Assembly: GCA_951406725.2 (NCBI GenBank) | Contig: OX597819.1 | Coordinates: forward strand, 98,642,001 to 98,706,000 | DNA from: Octopus vulgaris | Lineage: Eukaryota | Reading direction: 5' to 3' | DNA: 64,000 nucleotides | Shown here: positions 3,225 to 49,209 of the stretch, piece by piece | How the letters are laid out: each line of letters starts with the position of its first letter | How positions within the stretch are numbered: position 1 is the first letter of the stretch | Notes under the pieces: model-generated | Database searches by the model: none | What the model saw: only the letters and a program-made list of their open reading frames with translations | Told to the model about the DNA's origin: nothing | Position numbers and translations under genes: made by a program

Positions 3225-3359
3225 ATTGTATACGTTGCTGCCAGCTTGCCCTATATTTTCCTTTCCGTGCTGTTGATAAGAGGTTTAACCTTGCCTGGAT
3301 CATTGGATGGACTATATTACTTCGTCAAGCCAGAATGGGAAAAAGTAACAGACCTCTCA
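3225..3359 (+). CDS. SLC6 exon (TM5): [45 protein letters not shown]
   Basis: acag| acceptor, |gtaagt donor, 135 nt, phase 0/0; SLC6 TM5 motif. Confidence 0.95.
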
Positions 3360-6300: not shown

Positions 6301-9300
6301 AACCGGGAAACCGGCCCTAATGAGCCAGGCGTGGCTCGAGAAGGAACAAACAACTTCGTGTTCTAAGTTGATATAACTCTTGAGTGGATTTTGTCCTTCA
6401 TTCTTCCGGAGTCAGTAAATTTTATTTCCTATTTGCTTTTATCTAGAAATCAAAGGAAATAACTACTATTCCTCTCCAAACTATGATCTTGTAACCTGGA
6501 GATCAATGTTTTGAAACTAACCTATTTTCCATTACATTTCAGACTCAGAGCCGAGTTGCTGAAACAGAAATATCGTTATAGCAAATATTCTGCTCAATAC
6601 CACAGATTTGCTTATCAGCTGCTTGACCATAACCATTTGAGCATGTCCCTTACTGGCTGACAGTATGTGCATCTCTGATCATGAATAGGGGTAGTGGGGG
6701 AGAATCCTAGCCGTGTGTTGAGAGGGATTCTTTGGGGTTTTTTGAATAAATGTAACAAAAGCAAACTTAGAAGGAAATATTAGCCGTTTCTCATACTTTC
6801 TAGGGTTAAGCAAATAGGAAATAACAGTTGCTATCCAAGGATAAAAATCGCGTTAGGCAGTGTAATTATAATGGAATACTAATTTGGTTTTTCAAGGTAT
6901 GGAAGAACGCAGCTGTACAAATATTTTTATCCATTGGAATCGGTACGAGTGCATTAGCAACATTATCAAGTTACAACGACTTCCATAACAACTGTCAGAG
7001 GTAATACGTTCTCTTACTGTCATTATTTGTGAGTTAGCTGTGGCCAGTTTTTAGGAAGTAGAAATTTTAAGCAAGCATTCTTCCATTTTGTGATTAATAA
7101 TTTAAAGGAAAAGAGAAGCAACGTTCAATAATGTCTGACTCTATGAATTAAAAGAAACCCATATTAGTTCGATCGTGAAGGGTTGGGGAACATAAAATCT
7201 TCAGTCGAGATCTGAAGATTGTGTGCTCCAGGTAGAACATACTTCCACTTATATTAGGGCCAAAATGTTCATTCTATTATTCAGTAGTTTATCACATAGC
7301 ATACAATGTGACAGTCTATGTTGCATTTGCATTGTCCAATGCTTTTAATTTGTGTAAGATTTTGTGGCAGTAACATTCTGGATTGATTTCAAGCATTCTT
7401 GACGAAAGTTCGCCTTGTTGTTAAAGTAAATAGCTTTTACCCTCTCGATTGCAACAAGTCTTGAATTAAAGATAGATTTAGATTGATTACCTTTCGGTAC
7501 CCAGCTGTAGCTATCTTACTACTAGGTGGAGTGGACAGCTGACAATTAATTGTCTTGGCTTTGGACACAGTATACAATGTAGAACATAGAAACAGGTGGG
7601 TGACCTGTACAGTTTTAAAGTTAATTATCTGGGCTAAAAATATAGCATTATGGTATATACATATATATAGCAAGAGTCCGATCTACCTTTAAGTAACTGG
7701 ACAGTTGATATTAGTTATGAATGAGGTACAGAGAGCTGTTATACTACAACCAACAGTCCTCCAAGCTACGTAAAGTTGGGTGGACAGTTGACTGTTAAAG
7801 AACATCCACAGTACCATGAAATATACTATACTGTGGTACCTACGTACATCAGGGTGAGATATTAGTTTCAAACTTTGGTACAAGGTCAGCAATTTCGAAG
7901 GAGGGGTGAGTCGATTACACCGACCCCAGTACTTAACTGGTACTTATTTTATCGACTCTGAAAGGATGAAAGGCAAAGTCAACCTCAGCGGAATAGGTAC
8001 TCAGAACGAATAGAAAGAGGAAATGCCGCTAAGCATTTTTTTCGGCGTGATAACGATTCTGCCAGTTCGCCGCCTTTTAAAAGGTGGTCGGCAAGCCGCT
8101 ACACAGAATCGAACACTGTACTTCTCAGAGCTGAGCACTCTGTAACACTAAGCGCAGCAGCCTCAGACATTAAAATAAGATATTATCTATTAACTTCGTA
8201 ATGGGCATAATGCAATAAATTATACCAATCCGTGAGATATAACAATGACAGCTAGGTGAACTAGAACAATGACAATCAACTGTCAATAGTAAATACAGAA
8301 CAAAGGAAATATGCTATACTGTGTTACCTACATGTTACTATGTGTCAATACCATAAACAGAATACAGTACAGCAAACTACAATACGGTGACAATTATGCA
8401 CAACTGTGTGGCGTGGACTATTGACAGTCAAATGTTAACGTCATAAACAGTGTAGATAGCATTCATTGAACGATAGGATATTCAACTGATTGTGCACTGC
8501 AACATATTGAAGATAAAAAAAATTGATATCATCAATCTCAGTAATAATATTTCTTGAAGTATTTTTTATCCCTCATTTTATATGCTGTCTCCGGACTTAT
8601 TAAAATAAATTCCATTTTGTAAATTATGATTTATTTCTATTCGTTACAGAGATGCCATCATTTTACCAATAATAGACGGATTAACCAGCTTTTTGTCCGG
8701 TTTGACATCGTTTAGTATCCTGGGTTACATGGCTCATATTAGTGGAACACATATTGACAATGTGATATCGAAAGGTACATTAAATATGCTATATCTAAAA
8801 TTATCAATGTTATTGATATAATTATTCTAATATACCTTAGAGTGACGAGCTGACAGAATCGTTAGCAGACCGGGCAAAATGTTTTGCAGTATTTCGTCTG
8901 TCTTCATGTTCTGAGTTCAAATTTCGCCGATATCGAGTTTACCTTTCATCCTTTCGGGGTCGATAAATTAAATGCTAAGGGAAACGCTGGGGTGGATGTA
9001 ATCGACTAGTCACCTCCACCAAAATTTCAGGCCTTGTGCCTATAGCAGAAAGGAATATTGATATACTTATCTTCAGATACCTTACGGTGGCGAGTTGGCA
9101 GAATCATTTGGACGTCAGGCAAAATGTTTAGCGGCATTTCCTCCATCTGAGTTCAAATGCCGGCGGGATCGACTTTACCTTTCCTTCTTTTGGAGTCGAT
9201 AAAATGAACACCAGCTGAGAACTGGGGATCGATGTAATACTAACCTTGAGCCAAAAATTTGTAACCAGTATCTTAAGATAACTTAACCGTGTTATGGTTA

Positions 9301-12300
9301 ATATGACATTGTTATTGTACAAAATCAACATTTCATCAACCCAACAATTATTTTTTGTATTTTGCCAGGTCCAGGGATTGTCTTTATAGTTTACCCACAA
9401 GCACTTTCAACTTTACCTTTTGCTCAGATCTGGGCAGTAATTTTTTTTGCAATGTTGGTGTTGATTGGCTTAGACAGTCAAGTACGTATTTTGTTGTTAT
9501 TGTTGTTTTTGTTGCTGTTGTTGTTGTTGTTTTATTGCTGTTGTCTTCTTCTTTTTCTTCCAATGAGGACTCACACCGTTAGCCACAAAGAATAATCTCT
9601 GATTCGAGCCTACTCTAAGCTACTAAGAATGCGTGTGGAAACTTGAAGATCCACCGACCACACGCGATAGACTGGCGGTTGCACGGGCCCGAAAGCTACG
9701 TTGTTATCCACATTCCGTAAACGGTAGCTTTTAACGGGTGGAGAGCTGAACCATCCTGGGGTACAGAGGATTCGCAATCTAGACTAGGGTCTGAAAGTTT
9801 AACACACCATAGTGGATTACACCATGGTTCCTCTGCTTTGTGGGAGAAAGAATGAGAGAAAGTTGTGGTGAAAGACTACAGCGGGGTTCACTCCCACCAC
9901 CGTCGGAGTCTCCTGGAGCTTAGGTGTTTTTGCTCAATAAACACTCACAATGCTCGGTCTAGGAATCGAAACCGCGTTCTTACGACCGCGAGTCCGCTGC
10001 CCTAACCACTGGGACATTGCGCCTCTATTATTGCTGTTGTTGCCGTTATTGTTGATATGGTTGCTGCACTTATTGTTGTTGCTGTTGCTACAGTAGAAGT
10101 CTGAGATTTCGTAGATAAATAACTGTTTGTGAACAGTCCGAACGCAGGCTTTTACGAGGGGCGTTCAATAAGTAATGACCCTAACCCACTTGCAATTGTT
10201 TGATCTAGCTGAAATTTTGCACGTGCACTTATTTATACCTTCTATAGATTAAGTGGCGAATTACAGCTCTGAACTAATTGTTGTTTCTGATTTACAGGTG
10301 TTTGAACTGAGTCAAGTGTGAAATGGAGCCTGTTGAGTGTCGAGCAGTGATCTGGTTTTTGTATTTGAAAGGACGCACACCACAGGAGACTTTTTATGAA
10401 ATGAAAGTAACTTATGGTGATGATGCCCCATCATATGACCTTGTAAAACGCTGGCATTGTGAATTCAAACATAGTCGGAACTCTGTGGAAACAGCTCCCA
10501 GATCTGGTCGCCCCTTCTGCCGTTGATGAGACGTCTGTCCGTCAAGTTGAGGCTGCCATTTTGGAAGGTCAACGCATAACTATTCGCCAAATAGCCCATA
10601 AGGTCAAGATTAATACCGGGTCTGTGGAAACTATCAGTCATGACCATTTGCTTATGCAAAAGGTGTCTGCCAGATGGATTTCCAGGTTGCTCACACCTTT
10701 CCAGAAGCAAGAACGCGTTGAGTGCTCGAGGATGAATTTGGAGATGTGCCAAGAAGATGAGTCAAAATTTTTCAAAAGACTGATCACACAGGATAAAACC
10801 TAGGTCCATCACTATGATCCATAGACCAAAGCCCAGTCAATGCAGTGGAAGCACCGTGACTCACCTCCTCCAAAGAAGGCAAGGGTGCAGCCCTCCGCTG
10901 ACAAGGTTATGCTCACAGTCTTCTGGGACCAGGACGGAGTAGTGATGACAGATTTCCTGGCAAAGGGTACCACAATTACAGGAGCCTATTATGCTTCACT
11001 TTTGAGGAAATTAAGAGAAGCTATCAAAATCAAGAGGCGGGGCAAGATCAGCAAAGGCATCTTCCTCCTGCAGGACAACGCTCCGGTCCACAACTCGCGT
11101 GTCGCCAGATCAGAAGCACAGGCGTGCAGCTATGAACTCCTCCCCTTGCACCCTCTGATTTTCACCTCTTCCCAGCCATCAAGTTGATTTTGAAAGGAAA
11201 GCGTTTCCCAGATGATGCAGCCTTGATTTCTGAAGTCACGTCGTGGTTGGAGGACCAAGCTGGGGTCTTCTACAAAAACGGTCTCCAGAGCTGTATCAAA
11301 CGATGGGAGAAATGCATAACTCTGGGTAGTTTCTATGTAGGAAAAGACTAATAACTGTGCCAAGTGTCGTTGCTCTACTGCTACGGGAAGTGGGTCAGGG
11401 GCATTACTTATTGAACGCCCCTCGTATTCCCTTTTAAAATCCCTTTATTTCCATCGCTTCCAGTTTTTCCTTCCATTATACTCTTCACATCTCTAAATTT
11501 CAGAGATGAAGGTGTGCAATAGTGTATCAAAATCTCAAAGAGTCACTATGTATTCATTATTTGGATTTGCTCTCAGCCATTATCAAACTGGGATCTAAGG
11601 ATTAAAAAAAAAAACATAACTATAATTTATTTTCATTTAAAACTCCCCGAAAGTGGAATGTTCTCTTCAATGTTCTTTTATTCTTTTATTCATTTATTTG
11701 TTTCAGTCATTTAACTGCGGCCATGCCAGAGCACCGCCTTCAGGGGTTTTTAGTCGAACAAACCGACCCCAGTCTTTCTTCTATCGGTCTCTTTTGCTCT
11801 ACCTGGGGTTGTTTTGATCGACTAAACAGTTCAAGGCGCTGCTCCAGCATGGCTGGAGTCCAATGACTGAAACAAGTAAAAGATTAAAGATAAATTTGAA
11901 ATTAACCGATTGTTTGATTATTTGATTTTGTGGTTGTTGTTTAGCTCCAAGCCAGATATAATGTGGTAAACTTAAGAGAAAAGGCCTACATGTGGCCATC
12001 CTGTCTTTCGTATTTAGACATAGCATATATAAGTAAATGTCACAGATCGATCTAACTAAATATAGATTTCTTTAAATCTATAATACAAATTCTTCAAAAT
12101 GTCAATTGTTTTCTCTTTCAGTTTGGTCATATTCAAGTGATTGTTACTGCTATTACAGATGTGTATCCAGAAAAATTTGGCAGCAATCACAAGACTTTGT
12201 TAACCGGAATTGTCTGTTTAGTTTGTTTTCTTTTTGGAATCGTTTTAATTACGGAGGTAAGAGACTTCAATAGGGTTATCAAGGGAGGTAACTCGATTAC

Positions 12301-20304: not shown

Positions 20305-21881
20305 AAGGTGTAATGTGGAAGTGCTAGGTAGTACTACACACTAGAAAACGACACCTCAATACATAACTTTATTTTCCTTTACTTTTATATTTTGAGTTTA
20401 TTTCCATGATTACATTCCTCTTTATATATATATACCTATTTTTACATAATGAATTTACCTACCATATATACTATTCTACTTTGCATAAAACTTTAGCTAT
20501 ATTGGTACTTCTGGCTCTCGTTTTTTAAGTATTCTAATGCGTCAATATTCTACAAAGATGATGGTACCTTTTTTAATTATAATTTTACTTTGTAAATGAA
20601 GATCAAATGAGTTTTAATATTCAAATTCTATCCTTAGCTGCAATATTTTAAGTAAAAATTGTCTTGTTTTGTACTTTACCAGATGTAATAAGTTGTCCTG
20701 AACTTTTCCAGGTTTATAATCTTAAGAATATTATTTCGCTTGCTCTCATTTTTCCATGTAATCCATGTTTTTTCCAGGTTATGCTATGATGCTAATTAAT
20801 AATGTGTCAATTAATAATCTAAGATTTTACTTTATTGAAAATTGAATTCGATAAACTTTCAAAGAACAACAGCTACTAATATTACCCATCCACATCAAAT
20901 TAATGGCAGAGAATTTTGCCATTTCAAAGGTTGCACTATGGTTCACCAATCGGTAACAAACAAAAAGACCCAAAACCATCAGTTACCAGGCTCACCTTAA
21001 GTAACCTAGATTTTGAGTTGGTGATAATAGCAATGACTGCTGCTGATCTAGATCTATCAATAATGATTCAATACAACAGTAATTATGAAAGCATATCACA
21101 TATACACAAGTGAAAATTACCTTCATTCCCATACTACAAAAATTGATATATGAAAATCCTTTTAAATTAATTTCGATATTAAATATTACGTTTAGAATAT
21201 AATCACTTTATAATAATGCCTTTTCTGGACAGCCTTACTACATGCTTTCAGGCTGCCTATAGAAACAGCCAAAAATGACTATATTCTTTCCCCAATAAAA
21301 TTAGATGTGTACATATGAAGCATATAAAACATTAATGAACTAGCCTGATTATATAATTAACTAAAAAGAAAAAGGGAAGCAACTAAAAAGGAATTAGCAA
21401 AAAGCGTAGAAAGCAAGTAAAGCTGAAAGTGAAAATTAATAAAAGTTAGACTTACTTAAGTGCACTAGCATATTAAAAATAATTTTATCAATTAAATATT
21501 AAAGTTTAAAAATAAGTTGTAAAATATAAGCACTTTTGACTAATGCCTTCTCTGAACAGCCTTACTACATGACTTCAGTACTGCCCATACAGACACAGCT
21601 AGAAATGCCTATATTCTATCAAGTGAATTTTGGATTTTAAAGAAAATAAAGATAAAAAAATTATTCAAATTTATTATCTTGCAATTATTAATAAATGATA
21701 TGCATGTTTATAAGCAAGAAATTATTGATTTCATAAGAAGGAACAACAACTACAGTATAATCATCTTGAATTTGCAATATGGCTCACCAAACGATAGTAA
21801 ATTGCAAGAACCCAAAATGTTCAGTCACCAGGCTCACCTTAAATCACATAGATCTTGTGTTGATGAAAACATATATAAAAT

Positions 21882-23540
21882 GTTTCATTAAAGACGATAT
21901 GGACATGCAAGAGGATCTACCAAAAACCACCAACGAAGAAGCACTATTAGTTTCCTTCGATGTCATCAACCTATACACCAACATTCCACATGACTACGGA
22001 ATAGAGGCAATAAAGTTCTGGTTAGAAAAATACTCCGAAGTTCCCCCGGACCCCATAAACCTAGATTTTTGTCATTGAATCTCTGAAGTTCATCCTACAA
22101 AACAATTACTTCCTATTCGATGAAACATGCTATCACCAAAAATGCGGTATTGCGATGGGAACAAAAAAAGCAACGACTGTCCTTGCGAACCTAATAATGG
22201 GTTTCTTTGAATCTACTCTATATGAATTTTCGCTCCAAAAATTTGGATCCCTATTCCACCAGTATATAAGAGAAAACTGGAGAAGGTACTTAGACGATTG
22301 TTTTATCATCAGGAATGAAACCTATGATATCCTTCACTGAACAATATAAACGCCAATATTCAATTTACAATGGAATATAGCAATGAACAGCTCCCATTTC
22401 TGGACATTTTGATTATAAAAAAATCCAACAATGAAATTGCCACCGACATCTACCACAAACCAACATATTCAAAACAGTATCTCCTTTTCAGCTCATGCCA
22501 TCCTAAACACACCAAAATAAATATCCCATTCAATCTAGCAAAACATCTGTACAATTGTATCTGATACAGCTACTCGGGAATTTCGCCTACAGGACCTCAA
22601 AATAACACTCATTGAACGCCAATACCCACCCGCATTGATAGACCATGGAACTAGACACAAACACATTAAAGACAACAAAACACAACACCATGCCTCACTT
22701 TAAATCACTCCCATTCATATCAACCCACAACCCTTAGAAACAATGAAGCAACACAATCGTACAAAATCTCCCTCTGCTCATTCACGATCCGAAAAGGAAC
22801 AACATTCTGAATACACATAAACTCCTCAAATGCAAAAGACAACGCAAATCACTTCAGAAACATCTAACAAATGCAAAACTGTAGTCAACACATACGATAC
22901 CAACAGCTAAAGAAATGCGGACGACCTAATTGGGGTACATGTCCAAACCTAAGGCTCACATTCCAGCAAGGAGAAAAATATTTAATTAAAACCAACTTCA
23001 CATGTGCCTCTCAGAAACTAATTTATGTCGTAGCCTGCTCAGGTTGTGGCCACAATTATGTAGGCCAAACGAGCCTTACTTTGAGATGCAGAGTTACACT
23101 ACATAAAGAACAGATTCGTTTTCCTCAAAGCAGGCAGATAGCTCTGAGCGAACTTATTGACAGATGCACAAGAAATAAAACACCGAATTTTCATATTTTC
23201 CCATTATACCAATACAAGGATTCAATCTCCTTACAAGAACGCCTAAACAAGGAAAATCTTAATATATAAACTTGACAACCTGATCCCTACGCTTTGCTAT
23301 TTCAAAATCAAATTTATTTACCACTATTCAATGATGCTGAGGAGGTAGATGTCCCCCTTACCACCTGTTGACTCCTTTTATCCACTCTTTCCATTCAATT
23401 TTACTTCTCAAGAAATGCAAAATGGCGTGATTCCTTATCTCAAGGAATTATTACTTTACAATGACCCTTGAAAAGCTAATGTAAATAGCGAAAACCGGCT
23501 GGATATCACTACATTTTATCAGACTTTTACCATCCATAAA
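21882..23540 (+). mobile_element. Penelope-like retroelement (RT + GIY-YIG endonuclease), 5'-truncated and frameshifted
   Basis: LVSFDVINLYTNIP, GIAMGT, WRRYLDDCF, LPFLDILI, YHKPT..KQYL.F.SCHP, and C....LIYVVAC..C...YVGQT...R...H motifs in the correct order. Confidence 0.9.
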
Positions 23541-26549: not shown

Positions 26550-27535
26550 CTACTCAGGGGCCTACGCAGAGTTGCAGAAAGTGTATGGAGAGGAGTGTAT
26601 GAGCCGCACACAAGTGTACGAGTGGTTCAGACGTTTTCCAAGATGACCGAAAAAATGTCGATAGTGACGAACGATCTGGGAGACCTGCAAACAGCAGAAC
26701 TGAAAAAAAACATCGCAGACGTGCGTGCAACTGAGAGGAAATCGAATCGACATCCGTGAGTAATCAGAGGATGTGCAGATTAGTTACGGCTCAGTTTAGT
26801 CCATTATCACTGAAGATTTGGATATGAGACGCGTATCTGCCAAGTTTGTGCGAAAAGTGGAAAACTGTAGCCCCCCCCCCTTCAAAAAAACACACTCGGA
26901 TTTCAGTTGAACAAGATCTCCTTGAATGTGCTGAGAACAATCAAAACTTTTTGAAAACGGTCGTAACGGGTGATGAATCGTGGGACTATGGCTATGACCC
27001 TGAAACAATGGCTCAGTCTTCGCAGTGGAAGACCCCAATTGCTTATGAGTCGAAGTAATGTGAAGGTACTGTTGACCGTTTACTTTGGCTACAAGGGGAT
27101 CGTTCATGGAGTATACGCCACCTGGCCAGGCAATAAACAAGTAGAACTACCATAACGTTTTGCGGCGTTTGCGGGATGCTATTCGCTGGAGAAGGCCTCA
27201 ATTGCATGTGTCCGGTGTGTGGCAATTGTACCCTGACAATGCACCTACCCATTCAGCGCAGCTTGTTCTGCAGTTTTTGACTAGACACAACGTTCCCCAC
27301 GTCCAACAGCCACCGTATTCCCCAGATCTCGCCCATTGCCAATTTTTTCTCTTTCCAAAAATCAGATTCAGCTCGAAAGGAAGAAAATTTCAGGACGTCG
27401 AGGAAATGAAAATGAATGCAACAAGGCAGCTGCTGATTATCTCATAAAACGAGTTCCAGGAATACTCCAATCAATAGAAACAGCGCTGGATTAAGTGTGT
27501 GGCTTTCGAAAGGGACTACTTTGAAGGAGATTAAA
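26550..27535 (+). mobile_element. Mariner (DD34D) transposase remnant
   Basis: VYEWF.RF, R.SAKFV, TGDESW.YGYDPET, DNAPTH, PPYSPDLA.C.FFLFPK and YFEGD* motifs, frameshifted. Confidence 0.9.
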
Positions 27536-35482: not shown

Positions 35483-36452
35483 CGAGATGGTTTCAAAGAG
35501 TTCCCGGCCTAGTTCTGTAGCGCGCCAACAAATGGCAGTACACGATTGCGTGCGTAGTGAGAACTAGTAGTGACCTTTATGAGGCAGTGTGCTAAGTGAC
35601 ACCGCTGTTTACTTCGCAAGTTGTGAAATTTGCGTTTTTGTGATCACCTGTATGCTGTAGTCTGCGATTTTTGTCATGGACAAGAAGTTGAAACAAAGAG
35701 CCAACGTGAAATTTTGCGTTAAACTTGGTAAATCTGCCACAGGGGCATTGAGCATACTTCGGCAAGCTTACGGCGACGAGGCGATGGTTCGTAAGCAATG
35801 TTTTCAAAGGATTATCACTGGTGACGAGAGTTGGGTCTACAGTTATGACCCTGAAACGAAGCAGCAGTCATCACAATGGAAGAGTTTTTCATCTCCACGA
35901 TCGAAGAGAGCACGACAGAGTCGCAGATCAATCGAGAGCATGCTCATCGTGTTTTTCGACATCCGCGACATTGTGCAGGGCCAGACCGTCAATCGAGAGT
36001 TCTACTTCGACGTTTTGAAGCGTTTGAGGAAGGACATACTACGAAAGCGATTGAATCTATGGAGTGCGAAGAATTGGATTCTTCACGGCACTCTGCCACC
36101 GAGCTCTTCTCATTCGTGAGTTTCTCTCCGAAAATAACATGGTATCGCTTTCGCACTTGCCCTGTTCATCGGATTTAGCACCTGCAGATTTCCATCTTTT
36201 CCCTAAGATGAAAACGTAGCTAAAAATCGCCGTTTTAACACCGTTGTAGAGATTCAGAGTGAATCGCAGAAGGTCCTCGAATCGCTTCCGGAAAACGACT
36301 TCCAGGCCGGATTCCAACAGTGGCAGAAACGCTTGGACAGGTGTATTGCTGCGCAAGATAACTATTTCAAAGGAGATGATGTTAAAACTTTGTTAAATAA
36401 GTTATTTTCTTATTAAATATAACTAGTACGGGAACCTTTTGATACAATCTCG
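35483..36452 (+). mobile_element. Internally deleted mariner transposon
   Basis: Imperfect TIRs cgagatggtttcaaagagttcccggcctagtt / aactagtacgggaaccttttgatacaatctcg with TA flanks; QRANVKFCVKLGKSA, ITGDESWVYSYDPETK, SDLAPADFHLFPK motifs. Confidence 0.9.
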
Positions 36453-41248: not shown

Positions 41249-41458
41249 GTGAGTCTATTCAATATCCTAGTAATTTCAAACACTGTCTTGTACTTAATAT
41301 AACTAATTAAATATTAGTTTTTCTTTCACGTTTTCCTTCTTATGCTCTGACCTGATGTGGTTTTTACTACATCAAATATCTTATGTACCTTGTAATTCTA
41401 ATATTTTAATGCTTTCATTGTTTTAATTTTATTATCTCAATTCAAACATATTTCAGTG

Positions 41459-44400
41459 ATGTTGTTCCTGGATATACTTCTTCTAATCAAGTTAACAGTG
41501 GGTGTGCACTGTTGGAAAACTTCCAATTTAACAAATAATAAGGATATGGTTGTTGCCAATAAGAATATATTAAAAACTCCAGCAAAAAAGAATATTATTA
41601 TTTCAGACAGAGAGAAATATTCGAGCAGGTTGGTAAACAACCGGAAAAGAATATCTTCAGATTTGGCAATATTTAGAAATATCTACGTAGATATGGATAT
41701 AAACAGTGTTAAACAGAAACAATTAATTTTCGAAATATTTTCTAAATTCTACAGAAAACATATGAATTGTCAAAGAAACAATTTAGATCAAAGATCGACT
41801 GAGGAAATGATATATTTTTGTAAAAAACAACTGCAAAATAAAGTGCTAAAGTTTCATAATGGTATCAAAGAGGACTTGCAAGTAAAGCCAGTCAATAAAC
41901 AAATGAAATATTTTCTAACAAAGAACAGCCAAAATCTTGCGGAAAGATTTCAGGTTTATTATAAATATAATTGGACTTTTCAAATTTGTTCTATATTTAC
42001 TGCAATGCTCAACAATAACTTCCGAAATTTTAAATTTAAAGTACAGAATTTCGTCACTACCAAATCAACGCTGAAACTTTATCTTTCAGATTTAAAAGTT
42101 TTGGAAAACGTAGCGAAATATATGCTAGACTGCGATTTGATGCTAAAGAAGAAACAGAATATTAACTCAGACTCTGAAATCCATACTGGGTTACCGGTTT
42201 TGGAAGAAGTATTACCAAATAATGTAACAAACTTTCTGGTGACAGAAGGTAGCAAGAATATAAAACCACCCGAATATTCCAAGATCAGTGTGGCACCTGA
42301 AAGTCATGAACACGTTAAAATTACAGATACAAGTATATTTGTAGATGATACTGGTAGCAAACATTTACCAGAACATACAACGCTCGGTATAGCAGAAGCG
42401 TCCTCGAGTAATAACGTGAAACTTATTGTCAATCCTGGTTCACCTGTAAACTCACCAGGAACTACTAACAAGCTTTCTACCGGAAAAACCTCTCAAGCGT
42501 CCAGTTGTTCATTTATAACACGCTTACTCACAATCCACAAACCTATTCACCATAGTTCTATTCAGATCAATAAGAATCCTTCATTAATGTTTACTAGTAA
42601 CCATGCAACAGTTCTGACATCGAATAAGGAACAACCAATATCTTCTCTTCAATATAAAATAACTTTACCAAAATTATTGACATTTTTATTTCGGAAGGAA
42701 AATTTGAAATTTAAAGAAACACCATTTATTCCGAAACACAACTACGAAGTAATCTTTTTGCCAAAGTATTCTTCCCTAGTTTCAAATATTTTAATTCGTT
42801 TCGAATTTCGTTCGAAGTATAGATCTTTCATACTGGTCATCTGTAGATCTAATCTTGTTCATCGAAGACCAAAAGTATTTTGGAATTGCAAAATTTTCAG
42901 ATATGCATATCATCAAATCAAGAAAAAATCAAAATACATAACTATCTTAATCACAGGTAGATTCTTAGTTCTTTTTCCAATAACTCGTTTAATTTTCAAA
43001 TATAACACCATTCCATTTATTTCCTGGACAAATTCGAACTCAGATTTTCAGAAATCAGTTGGAAACAATTCTCCAATCCAGACCAGTCAATGTAAATTTT
43101 CAATTAATTTATTATTGTTTTCTACTCTAGGCACAAGGCTCGAAATTTTTGAGGAGGTGGGCCAGTCCAATATATCGACCGCAGTATACAATTGGTACTT
43201 AACTTATCGACCCCGAAAGGATGAAAGGCAAAGTCGACCTCGGCGGAATTTAAACTCTGAACGTAAAGACAGGCGAAATACCGCTAAGCATTTCGCTCGG
43301 CGTCGAATCAAGTCTTTAGAGGAAATATTTTCTTCGTTCACCGGCAGGAAATTATTATTTAATGTTAAGTCAACTAATTCTGCTCTTATTCACAAATTAA
43401 TAAAAAGGGATTTAAAAAGCAGTCAGCAGTTAACATCACAAAAGACGATTCAGTCTTTTTCTAACGCGTCCAACGACCCAACCACTCCAAATTTGATAAC
43501 TTCGTCCTTGATTCACTCCTCAGCTGTGGTTACATCAAAAGAATCCACAACACAATTGCGTTCTTCAAAGGAAACAATTTTGGGGTTTTCTAATATTACC
43601 GAATTACCAAAGCAGTTGGAGAATGTTAATTCCTCAACGGTAAATTTGACACAAGCTGTTGATTTAAATAAAACATTTAACATGGTAGATATTATAATTC
43701 AACCAGCTATTTTATTTACTGGAATAATTGGCAACACCATCTCTGTTCTTGTCTTTAGATCGACGGAGTTTAAAAACGAAGTGGCTTTTTATATACCAGT
43801 GTTCCTTTCTACAATTGAAATGCTTACAGGTATAATCGTATTTTTTGACAGCGATTTTTATATTTATTTCTTTGGAGGGAAAATATCGAACCTAAATTTC
43901 ACCATGTGCAAGGCATTTCATTATCTGAAAGTTTTTGTCAAATCTACATCGGCTTGGGCAATTGCTATGATGTCAGCAGAACGGTTTATTGCGGTCAAGT
44001 TTCCATTGAAAGCTAAAATCTACATCACAAAATACAAAGTTATGACTACAGTGGTTGTTTGCTTTCTAGTTGAGATAATGCTTAATTTCTCTCAGCTCGG
44101 CATGAGGTCCTATAATAATGACCAATGCGTTAAATCTAAACCAACTCATAATATTTTGGTTATACTAATAACAATGTTTAACGGGTGGCTTATTCCAACA
44201 TCAGCCACTGTCATACTGAATATATTAATTATCATCCATCTGAGGCGACAGAGCAGGATTCGAAATACACTCACACGTGAAGATAGAAGTCAACAATTTC
44301 GACAGATTAACGTCATGCTTTTTACCATAATAATTTGCAAATTTATCTTTGAATTACCACTAATGATACAACATGTATTAACGTGGGTTCGCTATGGATT

Positions 44401-44530
44401 AAGCGATCTTTTAGATAGTGTATTTATGGCTCTTGGTTTTACACAGCATTCTATAAATGCCTTTTTGTACAGTTTTGTTTCAAAATCTTTCCGTTCTGTA
44501 ATTTTGAGATGTTTTCGAAACAAAAGCTAA
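41459..44530 (+). CDS. Class A (rhodopsin-like) GPCR, FMRFamide-receptor-like/molluscan orphan type, with signal peptide and very long (~740 aa) N-terminus; single coding exon
   Basis: Uninterrupted 3-kb ORF in AT-rich DNA. ATG at 41459 follows a tttcag acceptor. Hydrophobic leader MLFLDILLLIKLTVGVHC. 7TM region from ~43682 with GIIGN (TM1), C...AW....MSAERFIAVKFPLKAK (TM3), IP...LN (TM5), ELP (TM6), INAFLY...SKSFR (TM7/H8). Confidence 0.88.
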   Translation: MLFLDILLLIKLTVGVHCWKTSNLTNNKDMVVANKNILKTPAKKNIIISDREKYSSRLVNNRKRISSDLAIFRNIYVDMDINSVKQKQLIFEIFSKFYRKHMNCQRNNLDQRSTEEMIYFCKKQLQNKVLKFHNGIKEDLQVKPVNKQMKYFLTKNSQNLAERFQVYYKYNWTFQICSIFTAMLNNNFRNFKFKVQNFVTTKSTLKLYLSDLKVLENVAKYMLDCDLMLKKKQNINSDSEIHTGLPVLEEVLPNNVTNFLVTEGSKNIKPPEYSKISVAPESHEHVKITDTSIFVDDTGSKHLPEHTTLGIAEASSSNNVKLIVNPGSPVNSPGTTNKLSTGKTSQASSCSFITRLLTIHKPIHHSSIQINKNPSLMFTSNHATVLTSNKEQPISSLQYKITLPKLLTFLFRKENLKFKETPFIPKHNYEVIFLPKYSSLVSNILIRFEFRSKYRSFILVICRSNLVHRRPKVFWNCKIFRYAYHQIKKKSKYITILITGRFLVLFPITRLIFKYNTIPFISWTNSNSDFQKSVGNNSPIQTSQCKFSINLLLFSTLGTRLEIFEEVGQSNISTAVYNWYLTYRPRKDERQSRPRRNLNSERKDRRNTAKHFARRRIKSLEEIFSSFTGRKLLFNVKSTNSALIHKLIKRDLKSSQQLTSQKTIQSFSNASNDPTTPNLITSSLIHSSAVVTSKESTTQLRSSKETILGFSNITELPKQLENVNSSTVNLTQAVDLNKTFNMVDIIIQPAILFTGIIGNTISVLVFRSTEFKNEVAFYIPVFLSTIEMLTGIIVFFDSDFYIYFFGGKISNLNFTMCKAFHYLKVFVKSTSAWAIAMMSAERFIAVKFPLKAKIYITKYKVMTTVVVCFLVEIMLNFSQLGMRSYNNDQCVKSKPTHNILVILITMFNGWLIPTSATVILNILIIIHLRRQSRIRNTLTREDRSQQFRQINVMLFTIIICKFIFELPLMIQHVLTWVRYGLSDLLDSVFMALGFTQHSINAFLYSFVSKSFRSVILRCFRNKS
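43118..43303 (-). mobile_element. tRNA-derived SINE copy (family A), 5'-truncated, embedded in frame in the GPCR ORF
   Basis: Matches other window copies (13918-14080, 58780-58995): tttctactctaggcacaagg...ggtactta..ttatcgaccccgaaaggatgaaaggcaaagtcgacctcggcggaattt.aactc.gaacgtaaagac...gaaataccgctaagcatttcgctcggcgt. Confidence 0.95.
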
Positions 44531-44591
44531 GTAAAGACAACATATTAAAAGCAAACGCAATGAAATATTTAGTATACTTTTGTGTAGTGGA

Positions 44592-44597
44592 AATAAA
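44592..44597 (+). promoter_or_regulatory. Candidate polyadenylation signal of the GPCR gene
   Basis: AATAAA about 60 nt after the stop codon, followed by GT-rich sequence. Confidence 0.4.
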
Positions 44598-45489
44598 TGT
44601 TTGCTGACCTGAAATATTTGCAGTGGGTTTGTGTATACGCTGGTATTAAATAGCTGAAAATTATATATTGTTGTCCAGTTTGGAATATGATATGATTATC
44701 ACAAATTCAAGGCATGTATTGCTTTGTAGTCATGAGTTAAATAGTAAAACGTTGTGATGAAATTCTGTTACAGTAGAAGTATGTCATAGTTGTAATGTTG
44801 CGATGACAAGAGTAGTCACGGTTTTTTTATATGATAATGAAGCGATTGTGATGTCCTACTGGATATATCAAGGTTGTAGAGAAGGAATCTTCAGGTATTC
44901 ATTTATTGCCAGAAAAGAGCAACTAAAATATAACTAAAGCATAAAAATAAACCTTATAATGAAAGGATGCAATAGGTAACTGCAGTAAACTTTAAAACGA
45001 GGCTACAACCTCGTTCTGATAAACTTTGACGTCTGCAATAACGTTTCAAAATGATGATTGATAAAATGTAAAAATGTGATAGGATCAGTTTAAAATATAT
45101 GAAGAAAGACAAGACTTGCGGTTCTGATTGCTGAAAAATAAGTGAGCAAGATAATTAGGAGAAAATAATTGAGAAAAAAATTACAGAAAATTAAATTAAT
45201 TTGAAGTCATATTTCAACAGATTCAATATGACATCGATTACTCCAGTTCACCTAGATATAAGATGAACAGGAGTAATAAATGTTATATCATTGCAAAATA
45301 GATCAATGAAAATCTTCAATGATATCGGGTGATTTGGCATGGTTACTCTTTGTGAAGAGCAACTTAATCTTTCTCAAATTACAACCTACCTAATTGAAAA
45401 AGGAGAACAAATTAGATAATGTCACCCTTTATTCGCAATATCTCAGGGAAGGACGGCATGATCTTAACTGGAGCTAGACAACAACAACA

Positions 45490-47938: not shown

Positions 47939-49209
47939 CGAGGGGCGTTCAATAAGTAATGCCCCTGACCCACCTCCCATAGCAGTAGAGCAACGAAACT
48001 TGGCACAGTTATTAGTCTTTTTCTACATAGGAACCACCCAGAATTACGCATTTCTCCCATCGTTTGATGCAGCTCTGGAGACCGTTTTTGTAGAAGACCC
48101 CAGCTTGGTCCTCCAACCACGACGTGACTTCAGAAATCAAGGCTGCATCATCTGGGAAACGCTTTCCTTTCAAAAACAACTTCATGGCTGGGAAGAAATG
48201 AAAATCAGAGGGTGCATGGTCAGGAGAGTAGGGGGGATGGGGTAGGAGTTCATAGCCGCACGCCTGTGCTTCTGATCTGGCGACACGCGAGTTGTTGACC
48301 AGAGCGTTGTCCTGCAGGAGGAGGATGCTCTTGTGATCTTGCCCCGCCTCTTGATTTTGATAGCTTCTCTTAATTTCCTCAAAAGTGAAGCATAATAGGC
48401 TCCTGTAATTGTGGTACCCTTTGCCAGGAAATCTGTTCAGAAGACTGTGAGCATGACCTTGCCAGCGGAGGACTGCACCCTTGCCTTCTTTGGATGAGGT
48501 GAGTCACGGTGCTTCCACTGCATTGACTGGGCTTTGGTCTCTGGATCATAGTGATGGACCCAGGTTTCATCCTGTGTAGTCAGTCTTTTGAAAAAGTTTG
48601 ACTCATCTTCTTGACACATCTCCAAATTCATCCTCGAGCACTCGACGCGTTCTTGCTTCTGGAAAGGTGTGAGCAATCTGGGAATCCATCTGGCAGACAC
48701 CTTTTGCTTATGCAAATGGTCATGAATGATAGTTTTCACAGACCCGGTACTAATCTTGACCTCATGGGTTATTTGGCGACTAGTTATGCGTCGATCTTCC
48801 AAAATGGCAGCCTCAACTTGACGGACAGATGCCTCATCAATGGCAGAAGGGGGGCGACCAGATCTGGGAGCTGTTTCCACAGAGTTCCGACCATGTTTGA
48901 ATTCACGATGCCAGCGTTTTACAAGGTCATATGATGGGGCATCATCACCATAAGTTACTTTCATTTCATCAAAAGTCTCCCGTGGTGTGCGTCCTTTCAA
49001 ATACAAAAACCGGATCACTGCTCGGCACTCAACAGCCTCCATTTCACAATTGACTCAGTTCAAACACCTCTAAATAAGAAACTACAATTAGTTCAAAGCT
49101 GTAATTTGCCATTTAATCTATAGAGATATATATAATTGCACATGAAAAATTCAAGCTAGATCAAACAACTGCAAATGGATCAGGGGCATTACTTATTGAA
49201 CGTCCCTCG
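47939..49209 (-). mobile_element. Near full-length mariner, same family as 10155-11424, inverted and inactivated
   Basis: Same TIR sequence and TA flanks; ORF 48437-49042 with ARWIPRLLT and QDETWVHHYDPETK; deletion after KVMLTVF. Confidence 0.95.

Follow-up and report, generated by a model that had tools for sequence, protein, structure and literature searches.

A frame-keeping antisense SINE in the long coding exon of an octopus class A receptor gene

A receptor gene with a SINE in its coding exon

We analysed 64,000 nucleotides of Octopus vulgaris DNA (assembly GCA_951406725.2, contig OX597819.1, positions 98,642,001 to 98,706,000 of the forward strand), called the window below, in which the gene of a class A G-protein-coupled receptor (GPCR) carries a copy of a short interspersed nuclear element (SINE) antisense inside its coding exon. 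The gene lies in a plus-strand frame (41402..44530) that runs for 1042 codons without a stop. Its first in-frame ATG, at 41459, gives a protein of exactly 1023 amino acids, where a sequence-only reading of the same DNA had placed a GPCR of about 1020. The SINE supplies 62 residues, with 553 receptor codons before it and 408 after it, all in frame, in agreement with the 550 and 400 open codons estimated in that reading; positions 43118-43303 also read exactly the peptide it had quoted, although the residues number 554-615 rather than 555-616. Base composition predicts one stop per 13.4 codons, against the 12-13 that had been assumed, and on this basis the 741 open codons ahead of Met742 have a probability of about 1e-25.

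Among 7381 candidates, the sole full-length relative of the receptor was P0001, a protein of 950 amino acids that is 74% identical, has the same start methionine, is open throughout and is SINE-free. Between the last shared Asn and the next shared Arg, P0001 holds 11 residues where the window receptor has 65, a difference of 54. Contigs of four runs (X7, X9, X12 and X13) were aligned to the window, and uncovered parts in X7, X9 and X12 were not counted as absence; the word-share figures of the remaining runs (X1-X6, X8, X10, X11 and X14-X24) do not enter the evidence. Record 9 of X13 (organism E, a closer relative than P0001; 6775 bp, depth 50) aligns without gaps to 41310-43116 (105 substitutions) and to 43302-44697 (55 substitutions), and has 23 letters at the site where the window has 185. 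The length of this empty site is the one predicted from the P0001 residues, and the net gain of 162 bases (185 - 23) corresponds to 54 codons, a multiple of three that introduces no stop. Since two SINE-free orthologues have an open homologous frame, these comparisons indicate that the SINE was inserted directly into a pre-existing coding exon, as the sequence-only reading had proposed. Stops or frameshifts upstream of the seven-transmembrane (7TM) domain, which that reading had named as a possible objection, were not seen in P0001 or as gaps in the X13 flanks.

Because the empty site occurs in both a nearer and a more distant relative, the simplest reading would place the insertion in the lineage of the window. 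An old SINE lost in the relatives was rejected because the identical 23-base site would have to be restored in two lineages; sorting of an old polymorphism could also have left this pattern. A search with P0001 residues 400-950 retrieved P0001 alone, and no squid or cuttlefish orthologue was obtained from it. Within the P0001 cluster, P0002 and P0004 are 916-residue variants that break off within the last helix; their contigs equal those of the full 950-residue forms in size, and the short ends may represent a frameshift allele or an assembly variant.

The inserted DNA proper spans 43117-43301 (185 bases), positions 43302-43303 being common to SINE and host (a 2-base microhomology), and the second junction has about 5 bases in common. 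Ten further places in the window are 76-90% identical to the repeat (43117-43303), over lengths of 78-189 bases, and its tRNA-type A and B boxes lie on the minus strand, so the receptor frame reads the SINE antisense; the earlier description of about 186 bp of the window's commonest SINE in antisense orientation was therefore accurate. The full SINE is about 215 bp long, with 87 other matches in 464 kb and 439,892 first-look candidates in the genome (G000). Search patterns that we take to describe the A and B boxes both match the consensus of the 29 nearest copies, and neither matches the window copy, which lacks about 30 bases at its 5' end, including the A box, and whose B box carries a base change that is synonymous for the receptor. 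Without an A box and with a mutated B box, the copy would be incapable of transcription by RNA polymerase III from its own promoter. Neither ARAGORN, with 0 tRNA genes for the window, nor Rfam, with two chance-level matches on one full SINE copy, identified a tRNA.

No target-site duplication was found at the window copy, and 12 of the 29 other copies have direct repeats of at least 9 bases (counted with at most one mismatch; some are of low complexity). The repeat is a tRNA-derived SINE by its short high-copy dispersal, its A/B boxes and the target-site duplications of other copies. Over its 185 bases the window copy has 15 differences from the consensus of the 29 nearest copies, and one base is inserted (8.1%; 3.8-9.9% for other copies). 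The SINE may resemble the MetaSINE superfamily, whose hallmark is a 66-bp Meta domain directly after the tRNA head, and we did not file it as a member. Eight of the 29 nearest copies (L061, L065, L069, L070, L071, L073, L077 and L080) are 5'-cut and joined to one common second sequence, which suggests that the element is composite or dimeric.

The receptor protein and its transcripts

The receptor is a class A (rhodopsin-like) GPCR by its Pfam 7tm_1 match above the curated cut-off, which bears out the receptor assignment of the sequence-only reading and covers profile positions 7-260 of 260. The receptor sequence matched 133 solved sequences, and all 60 among the matches listed are class A receptors. 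The coordinates of the features are collected in Table 1.

Table 1 Features of the receptor gene and its SINE insertion in the window.
Feature	Position	Strand	Basis
Coding sequence, 1023-residue orphan class A GPCR with an N-terminal region of about 740 residues	41459..44530	+	Open frame; Pfam; orthologue P0001
Single long exon holding the entire coding sequence and a short 3' untranslated region (3' end approximate)	41457..44615	+	X12 pieces between 41456 and 44615, no single listed contig piece covering all of it; AATAAA at 44592
Putative splice acceptor AG opening the long exon, 2 bases ahead of the ATG	41455..41456	+	X12 record 1 (one contig)
Putative signal-peptide-like hydrophobic N-terminus	41459..41515	+	Hydropathy peak 1.83 at residues 1-19; near-identical start in P0001
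5'-truncated tRNA-type SINE, read antisense as residues 554-615; 185 bases in place of 23 ancestral	43117..43303	-	Repeat matches, X13 breakpoints, boxes
Possible cryptic splice acceptor from the SINE tail, same phase as the 41456 acceptor	43128..43130	+	Pyrimidine-rich tract and TAG
N-glycosylation sequon N571-I-S, from changes private to the window copy	43169..43177	+	Copy comparison, motif scan
RPRR, residues 593-596, the protein's only R-X-K/R-R motif; none in P0001	43235..43246	+	Motif scan
7TM domain, Pfam 7tm_1, residues 763-1004	43745..44470	+	E 5.7e-16, 59.2 bits against a cut-off of 30.5
Likely polyadenylation signal AATAAA	44592..44597	+	X12 record 8 ends at 44615, 18 bases beyond

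Six of the ten N-terminal sequons of the receptor stand at matching positions in P0001, four of them directly before the first helix. Together with the hydrophobic start, these matching sequons support an extracellular location of the N-terminal region, which we infer; the N-terminus of P0001 falls below the hydropathy cut-off of 1.6 despite its near-identical start. The ancestral N-terminal region (41459-43116, plus strand) is unusually basic, with an isoelectric point of 9-10, and has no relative beyond the orthologues. Residues 401-553 are 44% F/I/L/V/W/Y, which is high for an ectodomain.

When residues 1-741 were compared with 1.84 billion representative sequences, 19 matches were returned, 18 to the SINE peptide and one to the orthologue fragment P0005, and residues 1-740 gave no usable match in the ESM Atlas. 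Within the genome G000, no paralogue of residues 1-551 was found (12 candidates scored), and the closest 7TM paralogues are 23-27% identical. The full-length 1023-residue form was not found among named database proteins. AlphaFold2, run on a two-sequence alignment, gave a mean predicted local distance difference test score of 27.7 with 1023 of 1023 residues below 50, and no structural inference was drawn from the model.

For the transcript, record 1 of X12 (organism B; 238 nt) aligns from 41456 only, its first 154 letters lying outside the window, and the outgroup DNA X13 crosses 41456 uninterrupted. The break of the X12 alignment at an AG and the continuity of X13 point to a spliced upstream exon. 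For the SINE junctions, a contig was taken to bridge when it reached at least 31 letters into the SINE. Record 30 of X9 (organism A, the window's species label) passes this rule, spanning 43253-43896 with two differences and 49 bases inside the SINE. Record 22 of X7 (organism D; 12 differences in 2710 aligned bases) starts 27 bases inside the SINE, which an empty allele cannot explain. The right SINE junction is thus independently supported by X9 and X7, and the left junction and the exact register are assembly-based. Among the runs listed as containing the sequence, none is catalogued as RNA, which says nothing about expression. X9 and X12 are labelled RNA by the tool's guess; X9 totals 47 million letters, and long unbroken contigs from a run this small would favour RNA.

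A crude count of pyrimidines places the acceptor in the SINE tail among the top of 173 AG sites, and the gene model P0008, a prediction, enters another SINE copy at this acceptor, in a reading frame with a stop immediately ahead of the entry point. The Octopus bimaculoides database models P0007, P0008, P0009 and P0025 contain this antisense SINE peptide as well and may be exonizations or annotation artefacts. In P0008 the peptide is joined to a sequence that we take to be aminopeptidase-like.

Constraint on the frame and competing explanations

The consensus of the 29 nearest copies has exactly one stop-free frame in six, and this is the frame used in the receptor. A fresh insertion would keep the frame with a chance of about 1 in 18 (one frame in six, times a net length of one in three). 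Among the 150 best-scoring copies in the genome, the receptor copy alone sits in a long frame (1042 codons); the frames around the other 149 measure 61-290 codons. Of those 149, 97 have no stop within the match by hand count, in a set biased towards open copies. The caution in the sequence-only reading that this antisense frame is often open in other copies was well placed, and an open SINE frame as proof of function was rejected, the consensus itself being open.

We then compared the host frame with its relatives. Outside the SINE site, all nine indels relative to P0001 keep the frame (1 in 20,000 at one third each), and across residues 1-552 and 616-742 no stops were seen relative to P0001 where about 10-13 (9.6-13.1) are expected, computed at a nonsense rate no higher than the amino-acid-changing rate; because the window frame and P0001 were both found as long frames, these indel and stop figures are somewhat inflated. 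The N-terminal region is 67-81% identical to P0001 along its length, and the 7TM part 79%. Relative to X13, the window has 160 substitutions and no indels outside the site, where 3.9 indels are expected from the SINE copies (P 0.02). Codons 1-206 hold 10 synonymous and 20 non-synonymous changes relative to X13, giving a ratio of non-synonymous to synonymous rates (dN/dS) of 0.49-0.74 by weighting. Coding constraint on the entire frame is supported by these comparisons, and they weakly suggest that the N-terminal region is loosely constrained, at a dN/dS of about 0.5-0.75 on 30 changes.

The constraint that had been proposed for the whole open reading frame, SINE included, therefore stands for the frame and is not significant for the SINE peptide, in which 6 of 15 changes are synonymous, a share that does not differ significantly from other copies (P 0.12-0.22). 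These 15 changes would escape a stop by chance 24-48% of the time. Translation starting only at a methionine near residue 743, also raised earlier, has little in its favour: the Met at 43682 is residue 742, and as P0001 has Leu at that position, a start there was rejected as the ancestral state.

Taken together, a frame-keeping antisense SINE (185 bases for 23), likely translated, is probably carried as a tolerated passenger in a loosely constrained N-terminal region. A 5'-truncated copy of the commonest octopus SINE would have entered the exon midway, antisense and with the frame kept, laid down by reverse transcription driven by a long interspersed nuclear element (LINE) or by break repair with target-site deletion. 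The missing duplication and the microhomologies of two and about five bases argue for insertion with target-site deletion. The insertion would have survived by satisfying the roughly 1-in-18 frame condition and by landing in a low-constraint stalk about 125 residues ahead of the first membrane helix, where its 62 residues would likely be translated and tolerated. The SINE peptide has probably gained no selected role.

Several observations weigh against such an easily tolerated, translated passenger. Of 29 near-full copies taken from unbiased stretches, just 2 keep any antisense frame open, and 0 of the 9 with identities of at least 85% do, so that remaining open with age is rarer than the biased 97 of 149 suggests. 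The N-terminal dN/dS draws on 30 of about 99 upstream coding differences, those up to 42076, and is not significant as a departure from 1 (P 0.06-0.27). At a depth of 2, and with a record (24) that begins 57 bases into the intron, X9 may represent unspliced RNA or DNA, and the 27 SINE bases of X7 fall below the 31-letter rule. Among the matches listed, none from any run spans the left SINE junction; the register across the G-rich run is that of the assembly. X12, the run that shows splicing, has no piece over either junction. Translation of the SINE codons, for which we draw on RNA contigs and inference, is hence put no higher than likely. Finally, the last 33 SINE codons have four of four changes synonymous (P 0.002-0.008), which leans slightly to selection in a segment that was picked post hoc and in which three of the four changes also occur in 3-9 of the 29 other copies.

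It is unlikely that the peptide has been co-opted, with a furin-type convertase cutting at RPRR so that about 575 ectodomain residues are lost and trafficking is changed or a tethered ligand exposed, and with the sequon adding a glycan. R-X-K/R-R is what we take to be the furin consensus, and the N-terminal region of P0001 has neither RPRR, R-X-X-R nor a sequon of the N571 type, while the insert brings two more R-X-X-R motifs. The 33 codons just mentioned surround RPRR and match the SINE consensus peptide, and the insert appears retained in two species labels. However, RPRR is already present in the SINE consensus and would be carried in by any in-frame copy, the synonymous excess is partly inherited and non-significant over the full insert, cleavage is a prediction from the motif, and human Alu-derived coding segments mostly lack signs of selection (PMC6924539). 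We regard as doubtful the further proposal that the SINE gave the GPCR a working proteolytic switch, in which the insert would be constitutively translated, a furin-type cut at RPRR would shed 596 N-terminal residues, the site would be selected in the carrier species, and the family of about 440,000 copies would be a standing donor of a cleavable basic peptide to the proteins of octopuses. If true, the family could act as such a donor because one of its antisense frames is stop-free and its tail is a splice acceptor.

Splicing might instead exclude the SINE peptide from the main protein or alter that protein, with the acceptor at 43130 or an acceptor-like site at 43347 joined to an upstream donor, leaving a shortened receptor as the main form and read-through as the minor one. 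The pyrimidine-rich acceptor of the SINE tail and the entry of P0008 into another copy at the same point speak for it, and an exonic Alu insertion created introns in human 3' untranslated regions (PMC2394776). But record 30 of X9, with its 49 SINE bases, passes 43347 unspliced, record 25 passes the best nearby donor (42957) unspliced, and by position arithmetic a splice from donor 42249 or 42957 to 43347 would throw the sequence out of frame. Even an acceptor in use at 43130 would retain 58 SINE codons in frame; taking the SINE out would require 43347. Judged from the 15 of 89 joints listed, we consider splicing of this kind improbable.

That the N-terminal region or the gene is inactivated, or the register an assembly accident, with the frame open merely since the insertion is recent, is very improbable: the insert is young, could have avoided a stop by the chance given above and has its left junction from the assembly, but 15 substitutions in 185 bases show a copy that is not brand new, 1023 codons are intact, the absence of indels among the 160 substitutions relative to X13 is unexpected, the right junction was found again in X9 and X7, and an assembly error would give a multiple of three just one third of the time.

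Related insertions and other features of the window

The reading of a tolerated passenger was compared with known systems. In human, 11 genes or subfamilies have Alu sequence in the main isoform; in most of them it lengthens or terminates an exon that already existed, and overall there is no sign of selection (PMC6924539). The principal-isoform cases, among them ZNF91, ZNF101, USP19 and NPIPB6, resemble the octopus receptor in that a SINE is in the main protein mostly via an altered coding exon and with little sign of selection, whereas in them the Alu lengthens an exon, supplies an additional one or changes a terminus, in many cases through a new stop, and the octopus SINE is interior and adds no new splice site (PMC6924539). 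The bovine EP3 prostaglandin receptor has SINE-derived coding sequence through alternative splicing, with a reported function (Shimamura 1998, cited in PMC9250109); it likewise recruits non-coding retrotransposon sequence into a GPCR, while the octopus case would be a direct N-terminal insertion. Exonized SINEs are generally low in coding potential (PMC2203978). Exonization and intronization of antisense Alu are similar in that the SINE tail gives a pyrimidine tract and an AG, but Alu exonization begins from an intronic copy (PMC2394776), whereas the octopus site was already coding according to the orthologues.

For the mode of insertion, primate L1 and Alu offer reported parallels of truncation, microhomology and target deletion (PMC2912911). 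The octopus copy shares its 5' truncation, short microhomologies, lack of duplication and lost target bases with retroposon insertions that delete target sequence or proceed independently of endonuclease (PMC2912911; see also PMC1920257); those are known from L1 and Alu in primates. As for the receptor, orphan lophotrochozoan class A receptors in the ESM Atlas (GPR139-like, Srw-like and GHSR-like) have a 7TM feature score of 0.95-0.96 and also pass 7tm_1, but their clusters measure 306-440 residues, and the octopus receptor has an ancestral N-terminal region of about 690 residues that matches only its orthologues. Cephalopod class A receptor counts are given in PMC11886862, whose accessible text has no bearing on this gene.

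In the open-access literature we found no report of this locus, or of any cephalopod coding exon with a SINE inserted in frame. Proteins with SINE sequence are known; the cases compared here came about by splicing or by a rewritten protein end, and the octopus receptor is a clear natural example in which a near-complete SINE is read through within a coding exon. With an empty site in two relatives and base-exact breakpoints, the locus offers a with/without test of whether SINE-derived residues are neutral or useful at the start. The analysis also flags a 1023-residue receptor that repeat masking would split.

Elsewhere in the window, exons of an SLC6/SNF neurotransmitter transporter lie at 8645-8779 and 9368-9490 (plus strand; Pfam PF00209 matches), with more exon-like frames near 3300, 12100, 15750 and 17850. 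Further SNF matches at G000:C6:98520252, 98569268 and 98640283 suggest that SNF genes form a tandem cluster that precedes the GPCR and shares its strand. The frames at 48012-49054 (minus strand) and at 10447-11187, 35661-36119 and 27145-27447 (plus strand) are presumably broken mariner-type transposase-like frames. At 21770-23269 (plus strand) lie what we take to be reverse transcriptase-like and then GIY-YIG-like nuclease fragments, as in Penelope-type elements.
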